Shown piece by piece: positions 2,512 through 63,208 of a DNA stretch of 64,000 nt. Position numbers and translations under genes: made by a program. This DNA comes from Candidatus Azambacteria bacterium (lineage in GTDB: Bacteria > Patescibacteriota > Minisyncoccia > GWC2-36-17 > WO2-46-25). Below the pieces are notes generated by a model that saw only the letters and a program-made list of their open reading frames with translations, was not told the origin of the DNA and did not search any database. The stretch's first letter is position 1, and every line of letters begins with the position of its first letter. The DNA lies in the NCBI GenBank assembly GCA_016234725.1, contig JACRAK010000007.1:2121-66120 (forward strand), read 5' to 3'.

Positions 2512-3261
2512 TTGTCAATCAACTTTACGAGGTCGCACCTCGTAAGATATAATGAAATAGTGAAACGCCCTACTTTTGCCAACGAACACATTTACCATGC
2601 ATACAACAGAGGCGTGGAAAAACGAAATGTCTTTCTCGACGAGGAGGATTATTTTCGCTTCATACACGACCTTTTTGAATTTAATGATGTAAACCCTGCC
2701 CTGCCAAGTTCTTACCAATCTTACGAGGTCGCACCTCGTAAGATTGGGGTTGGGAAAAACAAGCGAAAACCGAGGGAATTTCTCGTTCATATACTTGCTT
2801 TTACTCTTATGCCAAATCATTTTCATCTTCTTCTTATGCAAAAACGGGAGAATGGAATTTCGGAATTTCTCAGAAAATTAAGTGGTGGGTACACAATGTA
2901 TTTTAATCAGAAATATGAAAGATCGGGCGTTCTTTTTCAGGGAAGATTCAAGGCGGCACTCGTTGAGCGAGACGCCCACTTTATCCATCTCCCGTATTAT
3001 ATTCATGCGAACCCCCTCGATCTTGTCATGCCGGAATGGCGCGAGGGGAACTTGAAAAATCCGGAAGCCGCATTCACCTTTCTTACGTCCTATAAGTGGA
3101 GCAGTTTTTCTGATTATATTGGCAAGAGAAATTTTCCATCCGTCACACAAAGGGAGTTTCTACTCAATGGTGCGGGTAACGAAGAAAGATATAAATCCGA
3201 TTTTATTTCATGGTTGAAAAGCATACAACTCGACACCATCTCGGATATAATCATTGAATAA
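2512..3261 (+). CDS. REP-associated tyrosine transposase (RAYT, IS200/IS605-like Y1 HuH transposase); TTG start in the track, true start uncertain
   Basis: HuH motif LMPNHFHLLL; YHAYNRG(V)EKRNVF N-terminal motif; flanked by and containing its cognate REP palindromes. Confidence 0.75.
   Translation: MSINFTRSHLVRYNEIVKRPTFANEHIYHAYNRGVEKRNVFLDEEDYFRFIHDLFEFNDVNPALPSSYQSYEVAPRKIGVGKNKRKPREFLVHILAFTLMPNHFHLLLMQKRENGISEFLRKLSGGYTMYFNQKYERSGVLFQGRFKAALVERDAHFIHLPYYIHANPLDLVMPEWREGNLKNPEAAFTFLTSYKWSSFSDYIGKRNFPSVTQREFLLNGAGNEERYKSDFISWLKSIQLDTISDIIIE
2525..2545. repeat. REP palindrome copy 1 (ttacgaggt-cgc-acctcgtaa) at the 5' end of the RAYT gene
   Basis: perfect 9-bp-arm palindrome, identical core to copies 2 and 3. 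Confidence 0.85.
2715..2747. repeat. REP palindrome copy 2 (15-bp arms) inside the RAYT ORF, in-frame (encodes YQSYEVAPRKIGVG)
   Basis: ccaatcttacgaggt cgc acctcgtaagattgg. Confidence 0.85.
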
Positions 3262-3420: not shown

Positions 3421-6400
3421 TTAGAGCTGCTTCAAGAACCCGAAGATGTCCTGGAAGTTGGTGATGATAAGGTCGATCACGGTTTCGCCTTTCTTGGGCG
3501 TCAGGATGGTAAAGTCGGTCGAGCGTCCTTTGTTGTTGGACGGATCTGCCGACTCGACCTGGAAGCGGTACACCGCGCCCGGCTTGAAGCTCGTGATCAC
3601 CATCACATGGCTTGTCGTATACTCCTGGTCGAGCTTCGAGAATTCGACAAGGTCGCCTTTGCCCACGCCCTCTTTCCAGAATATCTGTGAAGTGGACGGC
3701 TCGTCCGTTTCCCAATAGATGAGCGTCTGCGTCCGTTCCGTTTTGCCCGGGAATATCGTGGACTCGGAGCGTACCTTGCTGATCACCGGCGCTTTCTCGT
3801 CCACCGTCGTGCGGATCGTGCCGATCACTTTGGAGGCGCGCGCATCGGTCACGTCCGCGCTCGATATCTCGATAAGGAAGTTGGTATTCGACGTAAGGTT
3901 CGCCACCGTCACTTCGTGGTCTTTCACGAATTCCGGCTTGCCCTGCGTCCTTGCTTCTTTGCTCAACAGCTCTCCGTCATCAAACGGCGTGTAGCGCACC
4001 TGCGAATTGGAAAGCGTGTTCGTCTTCCACACGACCGTGATGGAGTTTTCCGTGATGCGTTTGAATGAGTAATCAAGGATCTGCGGCAATTCCGGCTTGG
4101 TCTCAAACACAAAGTCGCGCGATTTGCCTTCCGGCCCCACTTTCGCCTGCGAACGGATCTGGAAATGATACGCCGTTGCGGGCTCAAGGTTCGGCACCGT
4201 CACGACGTGCGTCGTCACCTCTTCCCGCGGCTGGCCGACCTGCACGGTGTAGGGGTCCTTCGCATTCGGATCGTATTCGTCCTGCGGCACCAGCGCGATC
4301 AGCGAACCGGCCGGCTTGTTCGTGCGCCACGTCACCGTCGCTTTGTTCGAGTCGATATCCACCTGCGGCACGCCGCCGATGATCGCAGGCGGCACGACTT
4401 CCTGCGTGATCTCTGAAATGGTGTCGGTGATCTCGGTCGTCAACTCTTCAAGATCCGAAAGCGACACATCGGTGGACACGCTCTTGAGGATCGATTTGAA
4501 CCGCTGCACCGCGTCTCTGAGTGAATCCTGCGTCTTTGCCTTGCCGCGCAATTCTTCGAGTTCTTTTTTAAGCGATTCCAGATCTTCTTTCGCAAGCAAC
4601 GCTTCTTCTTCGACGGTAAGCGTCGTGAATGTCTGGTCGCCCGAGTACGCGCGATTCCCGCGCTGATCGGCGGACATCACTTTGAAATTGTATGCGGTCT
4701 TCGGATTAAGCCCCGACACCGTCACGGTATGATCGGTCGCCATTTCTTCCGAACCGGCGAGGCCCCCATAGTTCATCGTTACGCCGTATTTCACCAGCGA
4801 ATCGGCCGATTCGTCGGTCGTCCACGCGATCGTCGCCGCTGTCGCCTTGATGTCTTTGATCACGAGCGACGCGATGAGCGGCGGCGTCACATCGCCCACC
4901 TCTACGATGGTCCTGCCCACCGTTACCACGTCTTTTGCGATGGTGGCGCATGAAAGCGTCGCTGATACTTCGCCGCCGGAAGCGTTGAGTGACCGCACTT
5001 TCGCATAATAGGTCGTACTTTCGGTGAGGCCGGTGAACGTATTGGAGTGCGCGGTCACATAACCCGCCGCAGCGCGCGATGCGTTATCGATCGTCCCTGT
5101 CGGATACTGCGCAACCTGCGCGCCAGCTACGGTCGAGAAATAATTTGCACCGACATCAGCAGAAAGCAAGGAAAGTTCTGTCGTGGAGAACTGGTCGGTC
5201 GTCCACGTCACCGTTGCGGTGGAAGAGGTCGTGGAACATGCCGCCATCGTCGTTATTGCCGGCGGCGTTTGGGTGGTTGTTGTCAGAGAGCGGATCGTTG
5301 ATTCATCGTACTGCGTGTACGAATCGCTTGATGAGTTTTGGTCCGTAGAGCGCACTTTATAATAGTAGGTTGCCGAGTATGTCAGGTTCGGAATAACGAC
5401 CGTATGCACATACTGCCCGTTGCCGTCCGCCGAGGTTACCTGCGCGCTTGAACCGACTGATATCGGATTGACGAGCGCCGATGCGCTTGTCGTCGCGTAA
5501 AACACGATGGAGTCGGATGCCTTATCCGTTTTCCATGTAATAGAGGCAGAGTCAAACGCCGGCGTCGCCACGATGCTTCCGGAGACAATCGCGGGGCCAT
5601 TTTGCGTGGTGAATGTGTAGCCCGCATCCGACGCGCCTTCAAATGCGCAATTGCCCGTCGCATCGCACGACTCCGCGGCATACCGGTACTGCATGTTCTT
5701 GGTCAGATTTGAAAGCGCGATCGTATGCGTTGCGGGCGTGCTTGTCGCGACCGTGAGATAGCCGGGATTTCCCAACTTCGAGGTATATCGCTCGCGGCCA
5801 ACTTTTCCGCTATTCACGTTATTCGTGAAATCCTGCTGTGTCGCAAAATATACCGCGGCATTCGTCGCGCCCGACGCGCCATCCGTCGCGTTAAACGAGA
5901 CCGTCGCCGATGTCGCCTTCACCAGCGAACTCGCCACGTTCGTGACCACCGGCGCCGTAGCGTCATTGCCGCCGCCTCCTTCGCCGAGATTTACCGCCCC
6001 GTCCGGTTTCGCCGTCGTCGAGGCATTCGAACGAATGGACGTATTGCCGTTTGCCGCGGTCACGCCCAAGCGATACCGATAATACAGGTTCGTATTAAGA
6101 TTCTGATGCACATAGTAGTTGGTGGAAATGCTCGTGATCGGCGTCGTAGCGTTTATATAAGAAGAAAATGTCGTGTTGTTGGTCGATGTCGCGTATTCGA
6201 TCTTATATGAAGCGAAATCAGACGATGTCGCCGTTTCCCACCCGATGAATAAGCGCCAGTCGCTCGTGCCAACCTTGGAAACATCCTGCACCAAAAATGA
6301 GCTTGATGCCGCCGGCATGATCGTCGATGCGGTGGATGTTGCCGCGGTGTTCGCGTACGGGTCGCGTACCTGCACCTTCAATGTCTTTACTTCAAAATCG

Positions 6401-25522: not shown

Positions 25523-26140
25523 ATGTTTTTTTCACTTCTTGATTCCGCGCTTAACTGGGTGCCGCTTGTTGCGGGTGTTGCGGCGATCGTATTTGTATAC
25601 ATCAGACATCGGAAAGGCACGTGCGAGATACGCATCATGAAAAAGGTGGTGCTTTCACTCGCGGGGTTCCTTGCATGCATTGTCGTTTTCAAGATCGCGG
25701 TGCATTATTTCATCCTTCGAAGCGACGCTTCGTTTGGCATTGGCCTTTTGCCGCCGCACACGCCGTTATGGGATTGGTTTGCACCCATGGCGATCGCGCG
25801 CTATGTCTTTCCTTTTGCAGTGGCACTTGCGGCCGCCGGAATTGCGTTTCTTGTCACGCCGCTCGTCAATAAACTATTCAAAGGAGAGCTTTTTGCCGAG
25901 GAAGACAAATACATCGTTGCGCTTGCCGCGCTTATCGTCGGGTGGCCGAACTTTGTGCTGTATTTGGGCGCGGCGGTCATGCTCACCGTGCTGCTTTCTA
26001 TCCGCGAAACGCTGCGGTACGGCATTGAGGCGCGCATCGTACTGACCGACGCACTTATTTTTTCCGTGCCGCTCGTGCTGTTATTCGGCGACATCGTCGC
26101 GCCGCATCTGTATCTGTACAAACTTACTATCTTCGCATAA
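25523..26140 (+). CDS. polytopic membrane protein, possible short prepilin peptidase (A24-like)
   Basis: about 6 TM helices; located between the pilin and pilB genes; GD in LLFGDIVAP resembles the second catalytic-Asp motif; weak. Confidence 0.4.
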   Translation: MFFSLLDSALNWVPLVAGVAAIVFVYIRHRKGTCEIRIMKKVVLSLAGFLACIVVFKIAVHYFILRSDASFGIGLLPPHTPLWDWFAPMAIARYVFPFAVALAAAGIAFLVTPLVNKLFKGELFAEEDKYIVALAALIVGWPNFVLYLGAAVMLTVLLSIRETLRYGIEARIVLTDALIFSVPLVLLFGDIVAPHLYLYKLTIFA

Positions 26141-26143
26141 CGC

Positions 26144-27856
26144 ATGCATATTTCTGAGGCGAACCTCAAAAAGATCGTCGTCGCATCGGGCATCATCTCT
26201 GATGCGCAATTTGAAGCGGCGCGGCAGGAAGCGCTGCGGTCAAACCGCACCATCGGCAACGTACTCATCGGCAAAGGAGATATCACGGAAAATTATTTCG
26301 CCGAGATCGTCGCGAACTATTTTGCCGTGCCCATCGTGAATTTCCAGGCCGCGCCGCCCGATGACGCCGCGCTTCACTTGCTCCCCGAACAATTCTCGAA
26401 AGCAAAACGCATCGCGCTGTTTGCCATCGATCATGAGAAAAAAACGGCAAAGCTCGCGATGGAAGACCCGGGCGACCTTAAAACCATCGACCTTGTTGCC
26501 GCAAAATTCGATATGCGCGTTGAGCCGCATCTCGCCACATCGTTATCGATGAAGGTCGCTTTTAAAGAATACAAGAAAGATATTTACAAAGAATTCAACA
26601 CGATCATCGAGGAGTCCATCAAGGAAGCGCTTGCGGCGGGCAACGTCAAAGACATCGGGAAAATGGCCGAGCATGTGCCCATCATCGCCATCACCGACGG
26701 ACTCATGGAGTACGCGGTCGCGCTCGGCGCATCCGATATTCATATCGAACGCCTGCCGGAAAAAGTGCTCGTGCGCTACCGCATCGACGGCATCCTGCGC
26801 GACATCGTGGAACTCCCCAAAGAGATCGACGACGCCATCATCGCCCGCATCAAAATACTTTCAAGCCTCCAGATCGATGTCCACTTCACGCCGCAAGACG
26901 GCCGGTTCAAGTTCAAACTTGAAGACCAATCCATCGACGTACGCGTATCCGTCATGCCCACGTTCTACGGCGAAAAAGTGGTCATGCGCCTCCTCCGCGG
27001 CTCGATCCGTCCTTTGAACCTTGCCGAACTCGGCATATCCGAACGGGACATCGCCACTATCAATGAAGCCATCAAACGGACGTTCGGCATGATCCTCATC
27101 ACCGGCCCGACCGGCTCAGGTAAGACCACCACGCTGTATGCGATACTCCACAAGCTCAATACGCCGACGGTCAACATCGCCACGATCGAAGACCCTATCG
27201 AGTACGACGTCGAGCGCATCAACCAAACACAGGTGAACCCCAAAGCCGGCATCACCTTCGCCAACGGCCTGCGCAGCTTGATGCGCCAGAACCCCGACAT
27301 CATCATGGTGGGGGAGATCCGCGACGAAGAAACCGTTTCTATTTCACTCAACGCCGCGATGACCGGCCACCTTGTGCTTTCCACACTCCACACCAACGAC
27401 GCGCCCACCGCGATCCCGCGGTTCATCGATATGGGCGGCGAGCCGTTCCTTGTGGCAAACACGCTCAATGTCATCATCGCCCAGCGGCTCGTACGCCGCA
27501 TCTGCACCGTCTGCGTTTCAAGCTATACGCCGACACCAGAAGCGAAAGAATCCATGAAAAAACAGCTTGCGCTCTACCATGCCGACCCCGCCCGCATCAA
27601 GATCCCTTCCCAGCTATACAAAGGAAAAGGGTGTCAGGCATGTTCAGGCACCGGCTATTCGGGACAGATCGGGATCTTTGAGGTGCTCAATGTAAGTCCG
27701 CGCATCAGAGAACTTATCAAACCGGGCGTTGCCATCGACCAATTGCGCGCGGTCGCCGAGGAAGAAGGGATGCGCCGCATGTTCGAGGACGGCCTCGCAA
27801 AAGCGGAGGCCGGCGCCACCACCATCGAAGAAGTGTTCAGGGTCATTATGGAGTAA
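26144..27856 (+). CDS. pilB: type IV pilus assembly ATPase PilB (GspE family)
   Basis: GSPII_E N-terminal domain; Walker A GPTGSGKTT; Asp-box MVGEIRD; CxxC...CxxC tetracysteine. Confidence 0.9.
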   Translation: MHISEANLKKIVVASGIISDAQFEAARQEALRSNRTIGNVLIGKGDITENYFAEIVANYFAVPIVNFQAAPPDDAALHLLPEQFSKAKRIALFAIDHEKKTAKLAMEDPGDLKTIDLVAAKFDMRVEPHLATSLSMKVAFKEYKKDIYKEFNTIIEESIKEALAAGNVKDIGKMAEHVPIIAITDGLMEYAVALGASDIHIERLPEKVLVRYRIDGILRDIVELPKEIDDAIIARIKILSSLQIDVHFTPQDGRFKFKLEDQSIDVRVSVMPTFYGEKVVMRLLRGSIRPLNLAELGISERDIATINEAIKRTFGMILITGPTGSGKTTTLYAILHKLNTPTVNIATIEDPIEYDVERINQTQVNPKAGITFANGLRSLMRQNPDIIMVGEIRDEETVSISLNAAMTGHLVLSTLHTNDAPTAIPRFIDMGGEPFLVANTLNVIIAQRLVRRICTVCVSSYTPTPEAKESMKKQLALYHADPARIKIPSQLYKGKGCQACSGTGYSGQIGIFEVLNVSPRIRELIKPGVAIDQLRAVAEEEGMRRMFEDGLAKAEAGATTIEEVFRVIME

Positions 27857-27867
27857 CTCCCAACTAA

Positions 27868-27885
27868 TAACTAACAACTTATAAC
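27868..27885. repeat. left inverted repeat of 4HB cassette 1 (taactaacaacttataac)
   Basis: 17/18 match to the reverse complement of 28292-28310. Confidence 0.7.
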
Positions 27886-27897
27886 AAATAACACACT

Positions 27898-28257
27898 GTG
27901 GAGGCTTTCCGATTCAAAAACTGGAGCGTTTATAAAGAAGCAAAGGCCTTATTCATGTCTGTCGTAAAAATAACACACGAGCTACCCAGTGAATACAGAT
28001 ACACAATAGGCGACCAAATGATCCGCTCGGGGCTATCAATCGTTTTAAACATTGCGGAAGGAAGCGGTAAAGAATCGGACAAGGAATTGAACAGATATTT
28101 CAACATCGCCATGGGTTCGACCAATGAAACGCTTGCGGTTATTGATGTCCTTAGCGATCTTCGTATAGCGGATGAAAAGAAAATGGAAGAAGCAGAAAAG
28201 TTATGCGTAAGCATTTCGAAACAGCTTGGCGGATTTAAAAAGAAGTTAAAAAAATAA
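27898..28257 (+). CDS. four-helix-bundle protein (23S rRNA intervening-sequence protein family, Avd-like)
   Basis: FKNWSVYKEAKAL...SGLSIVLNIAEGSGKESDKELNRYFNIAMGSTNET. Confidence 0.8.
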   Translation: MEAFRFKNWSVYKEAKALFMSVVKITHELPSEYRYTIGDQMIRSGLSIVLNIAEGSGKESDKELNRYFNIAMGSTNETLAVIDVLSDLRIADEKKMEEAEKLCVSISKQLGGFKKKLKK

Positions 28258-28291
28258 GTCCACGTAAGTTATCAGTTAATGGTTATAAGTT

Positions 28292-28310
28292 TTTAGTTAA
28301 CGGCCATGCC
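28292..28310. repeat. right inverted repeat of 4HB cassette 1 (gttataagtttttagttaa)
   Basis: reverse complement ttaactaaaaacttataac. Confidence 0.7.
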
Positions 28311-29517
28311 CTTATTCACATACGTCGCATCGAAAAAAGACGGCACGATTGTAGAAGAAGAGATCGAAACAAAAGACCAGGCGTCCGTCGTCGCCTATCT
28401 GGAAAAACACGACTACTTTCCGGTTTCTGTTAAGGAAAAAAAGGTGTATCGCTCTCTTTCTATCTCATTTTCAAGCAAAATAACCCTGCTTGAAAAAGTG
28501 ACATTCGCCCGCAATCTCGCGCTCATGATAAAGTCGGGCATCGGCATGTCGGAGGCGGTCGCCATTCTCCTTGAAGACGCCGAGCGGGCGCCTCTCCGAA
28601 AAGTTCTTTCAAAAATAAAAGCGGACCTCGAAAAAGGGCTTCAGCTTTCCGCTGCGCTTGAAACATTCCCTTCGCAATTTTCTACCGTGTTCATCAGCCT
28701 CCTGCGAGCGGGAGAGACATCGGGAAATCTTGAAATGTCACTGCTTCAAATAGCCACCCAGCTTAAAAAAGAGAACGATCTCAAAAAGAAAGTGCTGTCT
28801 GCCATGGCGTATCCCGCGATCCTTCTTTCACTTGCGTTCGGCGTCGTGGCACTGCTAGTCACCGTGGTGCTTCCGCGCGTCAGCAAAATATTCACGCAGG
28901 CGCATGTACAACTGCCGCTCCTCACCCGCATCTTGCTTGGCATTTCCGATTTTGTCGCGAGCCAATTTTTCGCAACGCTCGCGATCATTGCGGGCATCGT
29001 CGCGATCATCGCGCTTGCCCGCAGGTCATCTGCCGGCAAGCGCGCCTTGCAGGTCCTTTTCATCAAAACACCGCTTATCGCGCCGCTCATGAAAAAGATC
29101 GCGCTGGTCCGTTTCACCGGCACCCTCCATTCGCTTATGAAAGCAGGCGTGCCGCTCACCAAAGCGCTTGAAATCACCGCGCAGGCGATCGGCAACGCAT
29201 CATACCGGCAGGTACTTTTAGATATCGCAAAAAACGAGATATCTAAAGGCATTTCATTCGGCATGGCGCTCAAACAGCGACCGGAATATTTCCCGCGGCT
29301 CACGTCAAGCATGATCGTCATAGGGGAAAAATCGGGAAACCTTGAAAACGTACTTGAAAACTTGAGCTCCTTTTACGAGGAAGAGGTGGACGGCACGATC
29401 AAGTCGCTTATCACTATTTTAGAGCCGGCATTGTTGCTCTGCATCGGCCTCATCATCGGCGCGATCGCGCTCTCTATCGTCATGCCGATCTATCAGATGA
29501 TCAATGTGGTGCGGTAG
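28306..29517 (+). CDS. pilC: type IV pilus inner-membrane platform protein PilC (GspF family)
   Basis: two T2SS-F repeats and 3 TM segments; 403 aa. Confidence 0.85.
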   Translation: MPLFTYVASKKDGTIVEEEIETKDQASVVAYLEKHDYFPVSVKEKKVYRSLSISFSSKITLLEKVTFARNLALMIKSGIGMSEAVAILLEDAERAPLRKVLSKIKADLEKGLQLSAALETFPSQFSTVFISLLRAGETSGNLEMSLLQIATQLKKENDLKKKVLSAMAYPAILLSLAFGVVALLVTVVLPRVSKIFTQAHVQLPLLTRILLGISDFVASQFFATLAIIAGIVAIIALARRSSAGKRALQVLFIKTPLIAPLMKKIALVRFTGTLHSLMKAGVPLTKALEITAQAIGNASYRQVLLDIAKNEISKGISFGMALKQRPEYFPRLTSSMIVIGEKSGNLENVLENLSSFYEEEVDGTIKSLITILEPALLLCIGLIIGAIALSIVMPIYQMINVVR

Positions 29518-29527
29518 GGTTATAACA

Positions 29528-29556
29528 GCGAGTAGAATGTAGCGAGTAGGGAGTAG
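29528..29556. repeat. left inverted repeat of 4HB cassette 2, GTAG-repeat family (gcgagtagaatgtagcgagtagggagtag)
   Basis: 15-mer gcgagtagaatgtag is the exact reverse complement of part of 29971-29992. Confidence 0.8.
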
Positions 29557-29616
29557 AAGAAATGCAAAAGAGAAGCAAAAATCAGAACTTAGGGAGTAGG
29601 GAAAAGAGCGTGAGAA

Positions 29617-30465
29617 ATGAAAACGCAAACATATAAAGATCTGATAGTGTGGCAGAAATCCAAAAAACTTGTTTTGGAGATCTATGCTCTTGCCGAGCAA
29701 TTTCCTCCCAGCGAAAAATTCGGGATCACCTCCCAGCTTACGCGCGCGGCGATCTCCATCCCGTTAAACATCGCTGAAGGGTATAGACGAAGGGGGGATA
29801 AGGAAAGAGCGCAGTTTTTTTCTATTGCTTTTGGTTCGGCCGCAGAAGTCGAAGCATTGATCGATATCTGTAAAGATTTGCACCTTTTCAAAAATTGTAA
29901 TTTCACCGCCAGCGAGAATCTTTTAGACGAAGTATTGCGCATGCTAAATGTTTTCATAAAAAATTCTTCCCTACATTCTACTCGCTACTCGCCGCCTTCT
30001 CCACAAAAGGGTTTCACTATTCTCGAACTTATCGTTGTACTCGGTATTTTCGCCGTCATTGCCGGCGTTGCGGCGGTACAACTTGCCAACTTCCAGCGCG
30101 GCACCGTGCTTGAAAGCACATCAAAAGACGTCGTGAGCGCGTTGCGCTTGGCGCACGACAAAGCAATGCTCGGAGAGGACGGTGACAGCAACGGACAAGG
30201 TGATGCGTGGGGCATCCGTTTTGCCAACAGCACAACAGATACGTATGCTTCTTTTTATGGTGCAGCGTACAATGTAAACAATGTGAAAGAAACGGTTTAT
30301 CTTTCTCCGCCGCTCGCATTCAGCGCGCCCACTGAAGGAAACAATACCGATGTGATATTCACCAAGCTTTCAGGGACAACGACTTCGGCGAACATCACCA
30401 TCGGTGACAACGGCCAGATAAAGACGGTCACCGTGGACGCGTCGGGAAGGATCAGCTCAAATTAA
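29617..30465 (+). CDS. composite ORF: four-helix-bundle (IVS-family) protein (residues 1-~118) reading through, with no stop, into a pseudopilin (from ~PQKGFTILELIVVLGIF). The pilin part may start at the internal Met at 29941 (24-aa leader)
   Basis: N-terminal part DLIVWQKSKKLVLEIY...TSQLTRAAISIPLNIAEGYRRR...AFGSAAEVEAL = 4HB family; C-terminal part has a class III signal (G/FTILELIVV); the junction coincides with the right IR of the cassette. Confidence 0.65.
   Translation: MKTQTYKDLIVWQKSKKLVLEIYALAEQFPPSEKFGITSQLTRAAISIPLNIAEGYRRRGDKERAQFFSIAFGSAAEVEALIDICKDLHLFKNCNFTASENLLDEVLRMLNVFIKNSSLHSTRYSPPSPQKGFTILELIVVLGIFAVIAGVAAVQLANFQRGTVLESTSKDVVSALRLAHDKAMLGEDGDSNGQGDAWGIRFANSTTDTYASFYGAAYNVNNVKETVYLSPPLAFSAPTEGNNTDVIFTKLSGTTTSANITIGDNGQIKTVTVDASGRISSN
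29971..29992. repeat. right inverted repeat of 4HB cassette 2 (ctacattctactcgctactcgc), in-frame inside the composite ORF (encodes LHSTRYS)
   Basis: reverse complement gcgagtagcgagtagaatgtag. Confidence 0.8.
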
Positions 30466-30483
30466 ACATTTGACATTTAACAT

Positions 30484-31197
30484 ATGACATTTGACGATAA
30501 AAATTCAAATGTCAGATACCGGATGTTACATATGAAAAGTCAAAAGTCAAAAGTCAAACGTTGGGAGAAAGGTTTCTCCCTTTTTGAAGTCCTCATCGCC
30601 ATTTCCGTTTTTGCCGTTATCGGCGTCGTCGCGGCACAGTTGATCGGCATTTCTCTGCAATCCGACAAAACAAGCGGGCAAAAGACCGTCGCGCTCCAGC
30701 TTACGCAAGAAACCGCTGAAGCGCTCGATTCGCTTGCTGGAGAGTCGTGGCAGAACATCTACGGCCTTTCCAAGGGATCCGCGAACCATTATTACACCGT
30801 AGTCAGCGGCAGTAAGTGGGCGACTTCCACCGGCGACGAACTGCTCACGATAAACGCCGGTTCATACAAGCGGTATTTCTATATAGAAAATGTGTCCCGT
30901 AGCAGCGGAGGCGCCATCGTCGTTTCCGGAGGCAACAACGACCCCTCTACCCAAAAAGCTACGGTGGTCGCCTCATGGCAAAACGACGGGGGCGTGGATA
31001 TCGGCTTCGCCACAACGACAAAATATCTCATGCGCGCGCGCAACACCGCCGCCACGCAAACTTCATGGGCATATTCCGGACAAGGATCGAATCCTTCTTC
31101 CGGCGAAACAGCGGACTTCAACAGCGACTACGCATCGGATGCCGGCAACATCAGCACCTCCACCCCCTCGGGAAGCTTGACCCTTACACAACAATAA
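30484..31197 (+). CDS. pseudopilin / minor pilin (prepilin-type N-terminal domain); true start probably an internal Met (MLHMKSQ... or MKSQ...)
   Basis: KG/FSLFEVLIAISVFAVIGVV. Confidence 0.75.
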   Translation: MTFDDKNSNVRYRMLHMKSQKSKVKRWEKGFSLFEVLIAISVFAVIGVVAAQLIGISLQSDKTSGQKTVALQLTQETAEALDSLAGESWQNIYGLSKGSANHYYTVVSGSKWATSTGDELLTINAGSYKRYFYIENVSRSSGGAIVVSGGNNDPSTQKATVVASWQNDGGVDIGFATTTKYLMRARNTAATQTSWAYSGQGSNPSSGETADFNSDYASDAGNISTSTPSGSLTLTQQ

Positions 31198-31279
31198 CTT
31201 TATTCACAGCCCTCTTTTGGGTGTTTTGAGGAACTCTGTTATATAATCAAAAGCACCGTTATCAGTAATATAAAAAATT

Positions 31280-31570
31280 ATGGGGGAGATAGTTATCATG
31301 ATCGTTGATATTGCCTTGGTCGCGTGCGGAATCTTAGCCGCATATTACGCAAAACAGGTCGGCGGCAGTATAGGACACAAAAGCATCCAGCTTATGGCTT
31401 CCGGTTTTTTGCTTCTGGGGGTCGCTCATATTCTTGAAACCGCGCTCCTTACTTCCTTCCCTCAGCTCGATCTGGAAACAGTGGAAATAAGCCATCGCGT
31501 TTTGGTGCTTGTTGCGACGCTATTGATCTTGATCGGCTATGCGCGCTTGGCGCGGTTTGTCAGATCGTGA
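31280..31570 (+). CDS. small membrane protein (3 predicted TM helices)
   Basis: 96 aa ORF; hydrophobic segments; no recognised family. Confidence 0.45.
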   Translation: MGEIVIMIVDIALVACGILAAYYAKQVGGSIGHKSIQLMASGFLLLGVAHILETALLTSFPQLDLETVEISHRVLVLVATLLILIGYARLARFVRS

Positions 31571-56376: not shown

Positions 56377-56745
56377 ATGGAACGATCACGCATCACGCAC
56401 TTCAAAGAGCAATTGTTGAAAGAAAAAGAACAGCTTGAGGGCGACTTGAACGAATCCGCGACAAAAGACGACGGCCACTGGGAAACAAAGCGCCAGCCCT
56501 TCGACGAAGCGGGGCGATTTGATGAAGAAGAGCGCGCCGATGAAGTGGAGGAATACGAAAATGAAACTTCCATCGACCGCCAGCTTGAAACGCGCCTCGA
56601 GGACATCACTGGTGCGCTTCATAAAATAGACGCCGACACGTACGGCATCTGCGAACGATGCGGGAAGGCGATCGATGAAACGCGCCTTACCGCAAACCCC
56701 GCGGCGCACACGCATGTTCACTGCAACACAGCGAGTAGAACGTAG
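56377..56745 (+). CDS. DksA/TraR-family C4 zinc-finger protein
   Basis: C-terminal YGICERCGKAIDETRLTANPAAHTHVHC; acidic coiled-coil N-terminus. Confidence 0.7.
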   Translation: MERSRITHFKEQLLKEKEQLEGDLNESATKDDGHWETKRQPFDEAGRFDEEERADEVEEYENETSIDRQLETRLEDITGALHKIDADTYGICERCGKAIDETRLTANPAAHTHVHCNTASRT

Positions 56746-56800
56746 CGAGTGGCGAGTAAAAAACATCATGCGCGCCTACTTCCTACTCCCTACTCGCTAA
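56730..56800. repeat. GTAG-repeat palindromic element (gcgagtagaacgtagcgagtggcgagta ... cctacttcctactccctactcgct)
   Basis: left arm overlaps the last codons of the DksA-like ORF; right arm lies in the comM leader. Confidence 0.7.
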
Positions 56801-56820
56801 TTTCTAGCCTCTATCCTCCT

Positions 56821-58350
56821 ATGCCTGCAAAAGTTTTCTCTGCGACGCTCTGTGGGATCGACGCGAACATTATCACGGTGGAGACCGACATTTCGCACGG
56901 TCTCCATTGTTTTACCATTGTCGGCCTGCCGGACCAATCCGTCGGGGAGTCAAAGGACCGCGTCAACGCCGCGCTGAAGAATTCGGGATTTCAATACCCT
57001 AAAAAGACCAATCAAAAGATCGTCGTCAATCTCGCGCCTGCCGACGTTAAAAAAGAAGGATCGTCATACGACCTCCCTATTGCGCTCTCCTATCTTGCCG
57101 CATCCGACCAGCTTCGCTTTGACCCGAAAAAGAAACTTTTTGTAGGGGAGCTCGCGCTTGATGGAGGCGTGCGCCCCGTCCACGGCGCTCTTGCGATCGT
57201 CGCGCAGGCAAAGCGCGACGGATTTTCAGCTGTCGTTCTGCCGGCACAAAACGCAGAGGAAGCGCGCCTGATCTCGGGCATCACCATTATACCGGTCGCC
57301 ACTATTGCGGAGTGCGCCGACTATCTTTTGCACGGCACCGTCCCGGAACACGAAAGCACGCGTGAAGCCGACACGCTGCCCGCAAACGAAGCGCGCGATG
57401 CCGATGCGCTTGATTTCGCGCATATCAAAGGACAAAACCAAGCCAAGCGCGCCCTTGAGATCGCGGCGGCGGGCGGCCACAATGTGCTTTTATCCGGCCC
57501 GCCGGGAACGGGAAAAACAATGCTCGCAAAAGCGACCGTTTCCATCCTTCCTGAAATGGGAGAGGAAGAGATCATTGAAACAACAAAGATATACAGCATC
57601 GTCGGCCTGCTTGGCGCGCGCCATGCGATGACCGAACGCCCGTTCCGCTCGCCGCATCATTCCGCGTCCGACATCGCGCTCATCGGAGGAGGAAAGACCG
57701 CAAAGCTCGGCGAGATAACGCTTGCACACAACGGCGTGCTGTTTCTGGACGAATTCCCGGAGTTCCCGCGCGATGTCATTGAGGCATTGCGCCAACCGCT
57801 TGAAGATAAAACGATCACGGTGTCGCGCGCGCACGGCTCTTTTTCCTACCCCGCCAATTTCATTCTCATCGCCACCAAAAACCCGTGCCCCTGCGGGTAT
57901 TACCGTTCTGCCCAGCGCGAATGTTCCTGTTCGATGGCAACCATCATCAGATATCAGAAAAAGATCTCCGGCCCGATCGCCGACCGCATCGACATCCATG
58001 TTGAAGTGCCCTCAGTCACCTATGAAAAGCTCACCGAGGAATCCTCTGACCGCGAGAGCGCGCGCATACAAGCGCGCGTGTCGCGCGCGCGAGAGCTCCA
58101 GCGCGAACGGTTTGCAAAAACAGCGATCGCGCGCAACGCCGACATGTCCGCCGCGCACATAAAAAAGCACTGTTCGCTGGACAGCGCTTCGCTTGCGGTC
58201 CTTAAAAACGCGATGGAAAAATTAAATCTTTCTGCGCGCGCGTTCCACAAGATCATCAAACTTGCGCGCACGATCGCAGACCTTGAAGAAGCGCCGCACA
58301 TCCTCCCCACGCACATCGCGGAAGCCCTGCAATACCAACAAAGAACGTAG
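56821..58350 (+). CDS. comM: YifB/ComM-family Mg-chelatase-like AAA+ ATPase; start moved to MPAKVF
   Basis: ChlI-like N-terminal domain, Walker A GPPGTGKTM, C-terminal ComM domain. Confidence 0.85.
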   Translation: MPAKVFSATLCGIDANIITVETDISHGLHCFTIVGLPDQSVGESKDRVNAALKNSGFQYPKKTNQKIVVNLAPADVKKEGSSYDLPIALSYLAASDQLRFDPKKKLFVGELALDGGVRPVHGALAIVAQAKRDGFSAVVLPAQNAEEARLISGITIIPVATIAECADYLLHGTVPEHESTREADTLPANEARDADALDFAHIKGQNQAKRALEIAAAGGHNVLLSGPPGTGKTMLAKATVSILPEMGEEEIIETTKIYSIVGLLGARHAMTERPFRSPHHSASDIALIGGGKTAKLGEITLAHNGVLFLDEFPEFPRDVIEALRQPLEDKTITVSRAHGSFSYPANFILIATKNPCPCGYYRSAQRECSCSMATIIRYQKKISGPIADRIDIHVEVPSVTYEKLTEESSDRESARIQARVSRARELQRERFAKTAIARNADMSAAHIKKHCSLDSASLAVLKNAMEKLNLSARAFHKIIKLARTIADLEEAPHILPTHIAEALQYQQRT

Positions 58351-58452
58351 AACATAGCGAGTAGAACGTAGGACAAACACCAAAAAACAAAAACGGGGCT
58401 TCCACCCGTTTTTTTCTACTCGCTACCCCCTACTCCCTACGTTCTACATTCT
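58346..58452. repeat. GTAG-repeat palindromic element enclosing a bidirectional terminator (hairpin aaacggg-gcttcca-cccgttt at 58390-58417)
   Basis: arms gtagaacatagcgagtagaacgtagg / cctacgttctac...ctactcgctac. Confidence 0.75.
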
Positions 58453-58460
58453 GTGCGCCC

Positions 58461-61823: not shown

Positions 61824-62294
61824 ATGGAAACTTCAGAAACTATGACGTGTCAAAAAAGGTGTTGCGTGAATGCCGCAAATCGCACCGTAAAAAAAGTGCT
61901 CTGCATCATCGTGGTCATCGCGGCGCTCGTGTGGGTCGATACGAATTTCAACATCATTGCGTCGTCACAAGCCAACAAACAAGCGCGCGCACACTTGCAA
62001 GCGGTGTTTTTATCCAACGGCCAGGTATATTTCGGCGCGCTGTCGCGCCACGGCATCGGCTTCTGGCGCCTCGACCGCGCGCACTATCTGCAAGTATCAA
62101 AAACTCCTTCGGCGCTTTCCCCCGAAACACCAGACGGCACCGCGCCCCAAGAAACGCGCACCACGCTCATGAAATTGAGCGACGACATGCACCGCCCGCA
62201 AAACACCTTATTCATTCCCGCATCGCAGATCCTTTTTTGGCAAAATCTGCAAAACGACTCTCCGGTCGCACAGGCGATCATATCAGGCCAATGA
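61824..62294 (+). CDS. membrane-anchored hypothetical protein, paralog of 40005-40439
   Basis: shared sequence blocks (see 40005). Confidence 0.5.
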   Translation: METSETMTCQKRCCVNAANRTVKKVLCIIVVIAALVWVDTNFNIIASSQANKQARAHLQAVFLSNGQVYFGALSRHGIGFWRLDRAHYLQVSKTPSALSPETPDGTAPQETRTTLMKLSDDMHRPQNTLFIPASQILFWQNLQNDSPVAQAIISGQ

Positions 62295-63208
62295 CCCCGC
62301 GGCCGAACAAGCGGCTCGGCCAAAATTTCCTCGTCAACCGCGGGATCATCGAGAAGATCATCGCCGCGGCCGCGCTTGAAAAAACAGATACCGTACTCGA
62401 GGTCGGCCCCGGGCACGGCGCGCTCACGCTTGAACTCGCTCAAAAAGCGGAGAGGGTCATCGCAATAGAAAAAGACAGGGGACTCGCAGAAATCCTGCGC
62501 GCAAAATTGGCTGAAAAAAAGATTGCGAACGTCGAAATTATCGAAGGCGACATCCTCGTGTTTCTTTCTACTCGCTACTCGCTACTGCCTACTCGCTACT
62601 GCGTCGTCGCCAATATCCCGTACTATCTCACCTCCGCGCTCATCCGCCAATTGCTTGAACTCGCGCATCCGCCGGAGCGCATCATTCTCACCATTCAAAA
62701 AGAAGTCGCCCAGCGCATCGCGGCGCACGGCGGTAAAGAAAGCATTCTTTCGCTCGCGGTGAAATTTTACGCGGACGCACAGATCCTTTTTTACGTTTCG
62801 CGCGGCTCGTTCTCGCCATCACCCAACGTGGACTCCGCGGTGATAGAAATAATCCCGCGAAAAGAAAAGCAGGCCGTCGCGCCCGAAGTGTTTTTTACCG
62901 TCGTAAAAGCGGGGTTCTCGGCGCCGCGCAAAAAACTACTCGGCAATCTTGCAAAAGGATTATCCATAGAAAAAGAGAAAATTGCGGCGATGTTCGCACG
63001 GCTCGGCGTGGATGCGGATGTCCGCTCCGAGCAGCTTTCGCTCGCCCAATGGCTCGCCCTTGCCCCCGCACTTATGTATGGGCGTGAGGGCTTGCCCCGT
63101 AGAAGCACTTCGGCTGCCGCAAAGCGGCAAAAAGACGTAGTCAGCCGAAGTCCTCTATCGGGGCTTGCGCGATCAAGTAAAAAAGATATACTGAAAGCAA
63201 ATAATTAA
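62291..63208 (+). CDS. rsmA: 16S rRNA (adenine1518/1519-N6)-dimethyltransferase RsmA/KsgA, with GTAG-repeat-derived codons in-frame and a ~25-aa C-terminal extension over a hairpin element
   Basis: RLGQNFLVN...VLEVGPGHGALT...VVANIPYY. Confidence 0.8.
   Translation: MTPRPNKRLGQNFLVNRGIIEKIIAAAALEKTDTVLEVGPGHGALTLELAQKAERVIAIEKDRGLAEILRAKLAEKKIANVEIIEGDILVFLSTRYSLLPTRYCVVANIPYYLTSALIRQLLELAHPPERIILTIQKEVAQRIAAHGGKESILSLAVKFYADAQILFYVSRGSFSPSPNVDSAVIEIIPRKEKQAVAPEVFFTVVKAGFSAPRKKLLGNLAKGLSIEKEKIAAMFARLGVDADVRSEQLSLAQWLALAPALMYGREGLPRRSTSAAAKRQKDVVSRSPLSGLARSSKKDILKANN
62563..62610. repeat. GTAG-repeat copy lying in-frame in rsmA (tctactcgctactcgctactgcctactcgctactgc, encoding STRYSLLPTRYC)
   Basis: same ctactcgctactcg motif as the intergenic copies. 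Confidence 0.7.

Follow-up and report, generated by a model that had tools for sequence, protein, structure and literature searches.

A PF05635 four-helix-bundle gene flanked by inverted heptamer arrays reads in frame into a type IV pilin-like gene in Candidatus Azambacteria

The PF05635 family of four-helix-bundle (4HB) proteins is very abundant in the Candidate Phyla Radiation (CPR), Bacteroidota and cyanobacteria, and its genes are known as the open reading frames (ORFs) of intervening sequences (IVSs) in 23S and 16S rRNA genes, as in Leptospira and Coxiella. Short dispersed repeats that form intergenic hairpins are known from the repetitive extragenic palindromic (REP/REPIN) elements with their REP-associated tyrosine transposases (RAYTs) and from the short tandemly repeated repetitive (STRR) heptamers of cyanobacteria, and type IV prepilins usually carry leaders of ~5-30 residues. 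Here we describe a PF05635 gene located in a type IV pilus operon of Candidatus Azambacteria, an uncultured bacterium from groundwater: it lacks a stop codon and continues in frame, through one of the two inverted repeats that flank it, into a gene for a type IV pilin-like protein. The locus lies in a 64,000-nt stretch of contig JACRAK010000007.1 (positions 2,121 to 66,120 of the forward strand; GenBank assembly GCA_016234725.1), which we refer to as the window, and coordinates are those of the window unless another locus is named. In the literature that we found, the PF05635 family is termed functionally uncharacterised, and PF05635 ORFs between inverted repeats have also been described in CPR rRNA insertions (PMC11270868); prepilins carry the motif [KRHEQSTAG]-G-[FYLMIV]-[ST]-[LT]-[LIVP]-E and have their leader removed by prepilin peptidase (PMC8578077, PMC4390875). 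Our literature searches, which covered the PF05635 family and four helix bundle proteins as well as heptamer repeats and long leaders of prepilins, turned up no account of a fusion between a 4HB and a prepilin, nor of operon cassettes in which heptamers flank a 4HB gene. Both components, the PF05635 4HB protein and the type IV pilin-like protein, belong to known kinds, and their fusion is a variant of these.

The ORF at 29617-30465 (+ strand) is uninterrupted and encodes 282 amino acids (aa; Table 1). The first-pass annotation of this DNA had described a 4HB gene that is fused in frame to a pilin gene by way of the right repeat arm, and the continuous ORF with two complete domains confirms it: the 4HB part indeed has no stop codon, and there is neither a stop nor a frameshift at the junction. 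The first half belongs to PF05635 (23S_rRNA_IVP) across the whole domain, residues 7-111 aligning to positions 1-105 of the 106-position profile with E=1.7e-35 and 121.9 bits (Pfam cutoff 33.8), and it also matches the NCBIfam model TIGR02436 at 115.4 bits (cutoff 24). With no stop of its own after residue 118, it departs from the ~110-130 aa expected of a stand-alone protein and runs on through a 14-aa linker encoded by the right repeat arm (S118-LHSTRYSPPSPQK-G132) into F133-T-I-L-E137. The second half matches PF07963 (N_methyl) at residues 129-152 (E=3.8e-7, 29.8 bits, cutoff 21.2) and TIGR02532 (25.9 bits, cutoff 16.3), with a weak GspH/FimT-like signal in NCBIfam. Its prepilin sequence, KG132/F133TILE137LIVVLGIFAVIAGVAAV (here and below a slash marks the predicted cleavage site), has the glycine at -1, the hydrophobic residue at +1, the glutamate at +5 and the hydrophobic α1 helix.

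In the AlphaFold2 model of the 282-aa ORF (40-sequence alignment, mean pLDDT 90.8) the 4HB part consists of four helices (6-26, 37-57, 61-87 and 97-122, pLDDT >90), and the pilin part of a long α1 helix (135-184) and a β domain. The linker between them (123-134), which holds the cleavage site, is modelled with low confidence, and we read it as disordered. The predicted first domain has a four-helix-bundle fold like that of 2GSC (Foldseek E=8.6e-6, TM-score normalised to target 0.86) and 2RLD ('S23 ribosomal protein family', 0.87). The locus shares with type IV prepilins and pseudopilins (class III signal peptide, PilD) the K-G/F-T-I-L-E motif, the α1 helix, the β-sheet head and the pilB-pilC-pilin operon. 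It differs in that the motif begins at residue 129, behind a folded 118-aa domain. Typically the motif stands right at the N-terminus, preceded by a basic leader that is normally short (PMC8578077); here a short leader, of 24 aa, results only if translation starts at Met109. Foldseek also matched the Avd protein of diversity-generating retroelements (bAvd, 4DWL), which has the same four-helix-bundle fold (TM-score ~0.8 normalised to target). Assignment to Avd was rejected: PF22296 scored 17.5 bits against a cutoff of 40 and NF033474 20.3 bits against a cutoff of 80. The neighbours here are pilB, pilC and pilins, with no reverse transcriptase or template/variable repeat noticed adjacent.

The longest exact match between the two inverted-repeat arms that bracket the 4HB part is 16 nt (AGCGAGTAGAATGTAG and CTACATTCTACTCGCT), a length that none of 2000 dinucleotide-preserving shuffles reached (shuffle maximum 14). 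As resolved by Tandem Repeats Finder (TRF), every arm is a period-7 tandem array, here of AGCGAGT (4.3 copies) and CTACTCG. The GTAG-family inverted repeats of the first-pass annotation are therefore real, with 16 nt matching exactly where it had given 15 bp, but they are not fixed, transposon-like ends: they are inverted heptamer arrays that differ between cassettes. The right arm encodes ...SLHSTRYSPPS... of the linker, and its string TCTACTCGCTACTCGC does not differ between the window and three other loci (L001, L010 and L012) while the adjoining 4HB codons carry many synonymous changes, which indicates constraint on the arm at the nucleotide level. The stem formed by the arms is present in the minimum-free-energy (MFE) structure (duplex energy -43 kcal/mol, z=-3.6) and is conserved in six loci; the RNA fold of the whole region is not significant overall (z=-1.09), though the long-range stem is in its MFE structure, and an Rfam scan of 27700-30700 gave no rRNA or other RNA family, only one sub-threshold chance match. 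The left arm is likewise found upstream of the 4HB start in L001, L009, L010 and L012, abutting that start in the first three. In the window a spacer (29559-29616) stands between the two; within it are an incomplete duplicate of the left arm (29584-29607) and, out of frame, an ORF of 24 codons with its ATG at 29562 (MQKRSKNQ..., MQKRSKNQNLGS...), which is loosely like the MKQK... starts of orthologous pilin leaders.

With the rRNA IVSs this element has in common the protein family (PF05635/TIGR02436), an ORF of ~118 aa and bracketing inverted repeats able to form a long stem. It differs from them in lying in a protein-coding operon, between pilC and a pilin gene, rather than in an rRNA helix; its arms are heptamer arrays that vary between cassettes, its ORF is stop-less and fused to the host gene, and excision by RNase III would destroy the pilin message. 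Extensions of 7-residue periodicity (SGEWLVES..., TLHSPLSTLHSPL..., SGQWTERCE...) are also found at the N- or C-termini of 4HB proteins from other lineages (P0041, P0043, P0044, P0050, P0054 and P0059), and the N-terminal and C-terminal types look like mutual reverse complements. These sequences suggest that heptamer-array arms around PF05635 genes may be general well beyond the CPR.

In other assemblies, too, a nearly identical 4HB of 118 aa ending in ...FIKNSS reads without a stop through a repeat-encoded linker into KG/F.... Besides the window, the fused clade comprises L001/L003 (two NCBI metagenome-assembled genomes of Ca. Azambacteria; protein P0016), L009 (Logan; P0013), L010/L011 (Hainich groundwater contigs; P0012) and P0018, for which no DNA is on record; the linkers measure 14, 16, 22 or 27 aa and keep the frame in every case. 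The NCBI label of P0016 is 'four helix bundle protein' only, and the pilin is overlooked. When just the junction was used as the query (the last helices of the 4HB with the linker and the pilin α1), a search of 1.84 billion representative proteins retrieved P0061, P0062, P0063 and P0065, with alignments contiguous over the junction; another search yielded the fusions P0007, P0025, P0029 and P0038. P0007, P0025, P0038 and the four proteins of the junction-only search are more distant and independent fusions. When the 4HB alone was used as the query, one pilin fusion was found among the best 120 of 4053 matches, the remaining 119 being proteins of 85-140 aa without a pilin motif; the other searches used a pilin-containing query and are hence biased as to how frequently 4HBs are fused to pilins. 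The 4HB-pilin arrangement is rare but recurrent: unusual it is, as was said at first pass, but not unique, since it recurs in relatives and in distant proteins. Read-through of 4HBs into downstream proteins other than pilins is seen in P0034, P0035, P0037 and P0044. The distant fusion P0029 (L019, 700-790) has TTAGGTG/CCTAAAA heptamer arms, and its junction contains an A7 run preceded by TAAATG, which is out of frame; one added A would restore a separate 4HB stop and pilin start (MKKNLKPKTQNLKPNAG/Q).

How the fusion arose is suggested by relatives in which the 4HB stands alone. The stand-alone proteins from the 4HB-alone search (P0067-P0080) are 114-118 aa long, have 67-76% identity and end in ...FIKNS, ...NSH or ...NNY followed by a stop; the gene order is pilC-4HB-pilin in L016 and pilC-pilin-4HB-pilin2 in L013. 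At these loci the pilin ATG lies in the same frame, 3-9 nt past the 4HB stop: TGA-tat-ATG in L013, where the junction reads AAT TCT TGA TAT ATG TTT TTA CTA TCT ACT CGC TAC TCG CTA AAT TCT..., and TAA-attattaaa-ATG in L016, where it reads TAT TAA ATT ATT AAA ATG AAG CTT AAA TTT TTT ACT CGC TAC.... The right arm is located inside the pilin gene and encodes most of the leader (MFLLSTRYSLNS..., MKLKFFTRYLLLTIRYSLNSKRA/F; in L013 the leader is MFLLSTRYSLNSNSQSG/Q). The ancestral state was probably one with the cassette present, a 4HB stop and a pilin ATG, from which the fused form would need just the loss of both. The first-pass suggestion that the insertion had destroyed the pilin's own start is thus half right: the start has been lost, but later and along with the 4HB stop, as the stand-alone relatives carry the cassette. 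In a neighbour-joining tree (no bootstrap) the five fused 4HBs group together in one clade inside the stand-alone sequences, which fits a single origin. One lineage would have lost the stop and the pilin ATG, upon which the 4HB ORF would have run through the right arm into the prepilin; diversification of the fused lineage and its spread to a second paralogue of the pilin would have followed. In the window, L009 and L010 the fused module stands behind pilC and ahead of the orthologous pilin; in L001 and L012 other genes lie upstream and the pilin that follows is a different paralogue. The module has therefore changed place, for which recombination in the conserved N-terminal part of the pilin is a plausible mechanism. 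L005 and L004, close relatives of the window's pilin (dS 0.7-0.9), lack this cassette and carry instead a Fic-domain gene between pilC and the orthologous pilin (3962-5014 and 2-241, respectively), so the pilC-pilin junction accepts different inserted genes.

The fusion is genuine and evolutionarily stable, kept in relatives. Run SRR12113407 was assembled independently by Logan, and the resulting contig (L020), which encodes the exact protein, matches 28617-31465 of the window (~2.8 kb) with 100% identity. Together with the occurrence of the fusion in at least four further assemblies, whose in-frame junctions differ in linker sequence, this rules out an assembly error. Decay of the 4HB part to a pseudogene, an option raised in the first-pass annotation, is ruled out as well. 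Between the window and L001, L009 and L010 the 4HB half has a dN of ~0.12 and a dS that is above 2.5 or saturated (dN/dS ~0.05 or less), with no indel over 118 codons, and it combines a full-length Pfam match with a confident four-helix model. The pilin half is constrained too: dN/dS comes to 0.18 when the fused lineages L009 and L010 are compared, to 0.07-0.10 for the window against the unfused orthologues L005 and L004, and to 0.12 for these two unfused ones against each other. Both halves are under purifying selection, and both products are therefore still needed. Although a TAA would result if the TTTT run at 29951-29954 were one T shorter, and the distant fusion in L019 may be a homopolymer artefact, the results above leave a decaying 4HB or an error at the junction next to no chance of being the explanation.

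We consider it rather probable that the locus is a conserved 4HB-pilin fusion that arose through loss of the stop and the ATG, with both halves selected and the pilin reached by way of a precursor. The two conceivable routes to the pilin are not exclusive, and we favour the precursor as the main one with a start at Met109 contributing. Ribosomes starting at the 4HB ATG would make a 282-aa precursor, the hydrophobic α1 helix of which would insert as a signal anchor with the 4HB staying in the cytoplasm. Prepilin peptidase would cut between G132 and F133 in the disordered linker, at the cytoplasmic face of the membrane (the 4HB therefore need not cross it). The products would be a normal pilin of 150 aa and, in the cytoplasm, a 4HB extended by a tail of 14 residues; a second, conventional precursor with a 24-aa leader may come from initiation at Met109. 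The pilin would tolerate the fusion because everything N-terminal to the G/F site is discarded anyway, and, the 4HB being selected and without a stop, the precursor would be made whenever the 4HB is made. Some points weigh against this picture, which draws its support from sequence comparison and predicted structure. To our knowledge, a 132-residue 'leader' with a folded domain has no precedent among prepilin peptidase substrates, and prepilin leaders are described as short in a review (PMC8578077). None of the 15 ORFs of the window that were scanned against Pfam was recognised as a prepilin peptidase (peptidase A24). Cleavage of the stem by RNase III, if it took place as in rRNA IVSs, would strip the pilin message of its start, and the stem would therefore have to be either left uncut or cut in a regulatory manner. 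The L019 fusion may be a homopolymer error or a slippage site, and L012 keeps the pilin although ~78 N-terminal residues of the 4HB are deleted. As a separate observation, a 205-aa multi-pass membrane ORF without a Pfam or NCBIfam match (25523-26140, + strand) lies directly upstream of pilB, a position that it keeps in L005 and L007; it may encode a prepilin peptidase of divergent sequence or some other component of the pilus.

The pilin might instead be made essentially only from Met109, read-through being a minor by-product or yielding a 4HB with a degraded pilin tail, which we regard as possible but unlikely. The in-frame ATG at 29941 and the 24-aa leader that it gives (MLNVFIKNSSLHSTRYSPPSPQKG) are as the first-pass annotation had them. 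Leaders of the orthologous stand-alone pilins are 5-48 aa long, so one of 24 aa is ordinary, and no Shine-Dalgarno motif is seen in the 30 nt ahead of 30 gene starts in the window: any accessible AUG may initiate, and a ribosome-binding-site test of Met109 is uninformative. L012 is a natural deletion derivative (1840-2060) with the left GTAG arm joined directly to 4HB codon ~79, in which an Arg-to-Met change (AGG to ATG at 1915) provides a new in-frame ATG upstream of the last helix, the linker and the pilin. Although the N-terminal two-thirds of the 4HB are gone, its C-terminus and the linker are still there, as are both arms and an intact pilin under selection (dN/dS 0.105 against L001), and since that pilin persists without most of the 4HB, an internal start can suffice there. 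ATG109 is retained in the window, L001, L009, L010 and L012; however, Met109 is equally conserved in stand-alone 4HBs, which the 4HB fold explains, so its conservation does not discriminate between the routes. Moreover, P0018, a member of the same fused clade, has Leu at position 109, no Met lies between the 4HB and the G/F site in P0018, P0063, P0029 or P0038, and with the 4HB half strongly selected and stop-less, the ribosomes that make it must enter the pilin. A still different protein, an uncleaved two-domain membrane protein in which the cytoplasmic 4HB, probably as an oligomer, sits on a pilin-like anchor and regulates or nucleates the assembly of pili, strikes us as very improbable. It would suit the joint conservation of both domains in a monophyletic clade, the five chains (A-E) with which the structural relatives 2GSC, 2RLD and Avd were each deposited, and the presence of the 4HB clade beside pilin genes at every locus examined. 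That adjacency is biased, though, the loci having been found via the pilin or via the 4HB clade, and 4HB cassettes also sit between unrelated genes (pilB and pilC; L009 6199-6561). The G/F...E5 motif is intact, orthologous pilins work without any 4HB, and L012 has lost the 4HB and kept the pilin.

The features of the locus are collected in Table 1. The 4HB cassette in the pilB-pilC gap has arms of AACTAAT type, unlike those of the fused cassette; their exact match of 10 nt is marginal (44/2000 shuffles), and the extended arms of 25 nt have 88% complementarity. In the cargo-less repeat behind the fused gene, the right arm encodes KSQKSKVK of the next pilin's leader, for which the candidate ATGs are at 30484, 30523 and 30532. 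Elsewhere the arms are of still other types: CTAATT in L005, TCAAAT in L007 and TTAGGTG/CCTAAAA in L019.

Table 1. Coordinates of the fused gene, its flanking arrays and neighbouring features in the window
Feature	Coordinates	Strand	Evidence or remarks
First cassette, pilB-pilC gap	27862-28299	+	left arm 27862-27892; 4HB gene 27898-28257, 119 aa, own stop; right arm 28267-28299
pilC (T2SSF platform protein), upstream of the fused cassette	28306-29517	+	PF00482 E=3.3e-55; pilC-then-4HB/pilin synteny in L009, L010, L016
Left inverted-repeat arm, ~4.3 heptamer copies (AGCGAGT/GTAGNNN), purine-rich	29527-29558	+	repeat search; TRF period 7
Extra spacer, 58 nt	29559-29616	+	absent from relatives; direct repeat
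4HB domain, aa 1-118, ending ...FIKNSS, no stop	29617-29970	+	PF05635, TIGR02436, dN/dS, AlphaFold2, Foldseek
Internal in-frame ATG (Met109), candidate alternative start, 24-aa leader	29941-29943	+	sequence reading
Right inverted-repeat arm (NNNCTAC heptamers), encoding linker LHSTRYSPPS	29968-30000	+	repeat search; TRF
Prepilin peptidase motif K131-G132/F133-T-I-L-E137	30007-30027	+	PF07963, TIGR02532
Mature pilin-like protein, 150 aa, and stop codon	30013-30465	+	80-89% identity to stand-alone orthologues P0001-P0011
Cargo-less heptamer inverted repeat (ACATTTG, 4.3 copies; AAAAGTC, 3.4 copies)	30466-30558	+	before and within the leader-coding part of the next pilin gene (30484-31197)

Comparison of syntenic operons shows that the same positions are occupied in some and empty in others. 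The pilB-pilC junction is filled in the window and L005, with different 4HB subfamilies, and empty in L007; the pilC-pilin junction is filled in the window, L009, L010 and L016 and empty in L007; and between pilin and pilin2 there is a 4HB cassette in L007 and L013 and an empty hairpin in the window, L004 and L005. The cassettes therefore turn over. Leaders of stand-alone orthologues are themselves built of heptamers: L004 has three copies of TGCTTCA, and the leader-coding sequence of L007 contains a complete small inverted repeat (ATGAAAC-GTGAAAC...GTTTCAC-GCTTCAC-GCTTCAC). We infer that such leaders are footprints of former cassettes. More tentatively, we propose that the 282-aa ORF is a natural polyprotein, cut at G132/F133 into a functional 4HB and a functional pilin with a folded 118-aa domain as part of the class III 'leader', and that heptamer-bracketed 4HB genes are turnover-prone cassettes that repeatedly write, replace and leave behind pilin leader peptides. 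If so, the odd leaders of the orthologues (...FRFHE.., ...RFTLHE..) and the KSQKSKVK of the next pilin would be footprints of arms.

The GTAG-type heptamer is dispersed in the window, GCGAGTAG occurring 13 times against 1.5 expected. Empty intergenic hairpins of this type lie at ~56730-56807 and 58344-58454, the second enclosing a terminator-like hairpin (AAAAACGGGGCTTCCACCCGTTTTTTT), and a one-armed array (CTACTCG CTACTCG CTACTGC CTACTCG CTACTGC; 62565-62600) is in frame within a gene for a KsgA/RsmA-like rRNA dimethylase (ORF 61847-63208; RrnaAD matches at aa 154-406), where it encodes ...STRYSLLPTRY..., the same type of peptide as the 4HB-pilin linker. At 2512-3261 (+ strand) there is a Y1 (HUH) transposase-like gene with 46% identity to PF01797 genes in the pilus loci of relatives (L004 2397-3029, L007 6942-7391 and L008 3476-4090). 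In NCBIfam it comes closest to the model 'REP-associated tyrosine transposase', whose cutoff of 80 bits it misses with 38.4; as a lead only, it is a possible mobiliser of the heptamer hairpins.

Dispersed repeats and empty hairpins are features that the window shares with REP/REPIN-RAYT systems, its Y1 gene is RAYT-like, and the period of 7 is that of STRR sequences. It differs in the sub-cutoff score of the RAYT match, in having arms of tandem heptamers, not a single imperfect palindrome, and in the coexistence of several unrelated heptamer types. As with integron cassettes and miniature inverted-repeat transposable elements (MITEs), small promoter-less genes come and go at intergenic positions of an operon; here, in contrast, the repeats flank the gene on both sides. 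Readings of the element as an integron cassette, insertion sequence or MITE were rejected: there is no attC, nearby integrase, transposase in the cassette, target-site duplication or fixed terminal sequence.

At this locus a PF05635 gene behaves as a repeat-flanked cassette within a protein-coding operon, beyond rRNA, and in one clade its in-frame fusion to a prepilin has been kept over so much divergence that synonymous sites are saturated. Should the precursor be processed as we favour, prepilin peptidase would tolerate a folded domain upstream of its site, which would be relevant to the biology and engineering of type IV pili and type II secretion systems. Such processing would likewise account for pilin genes as permissive landing sites and, together with the empty hairpins, for the source of the unusually long, repeat-like leaders of these pilins.

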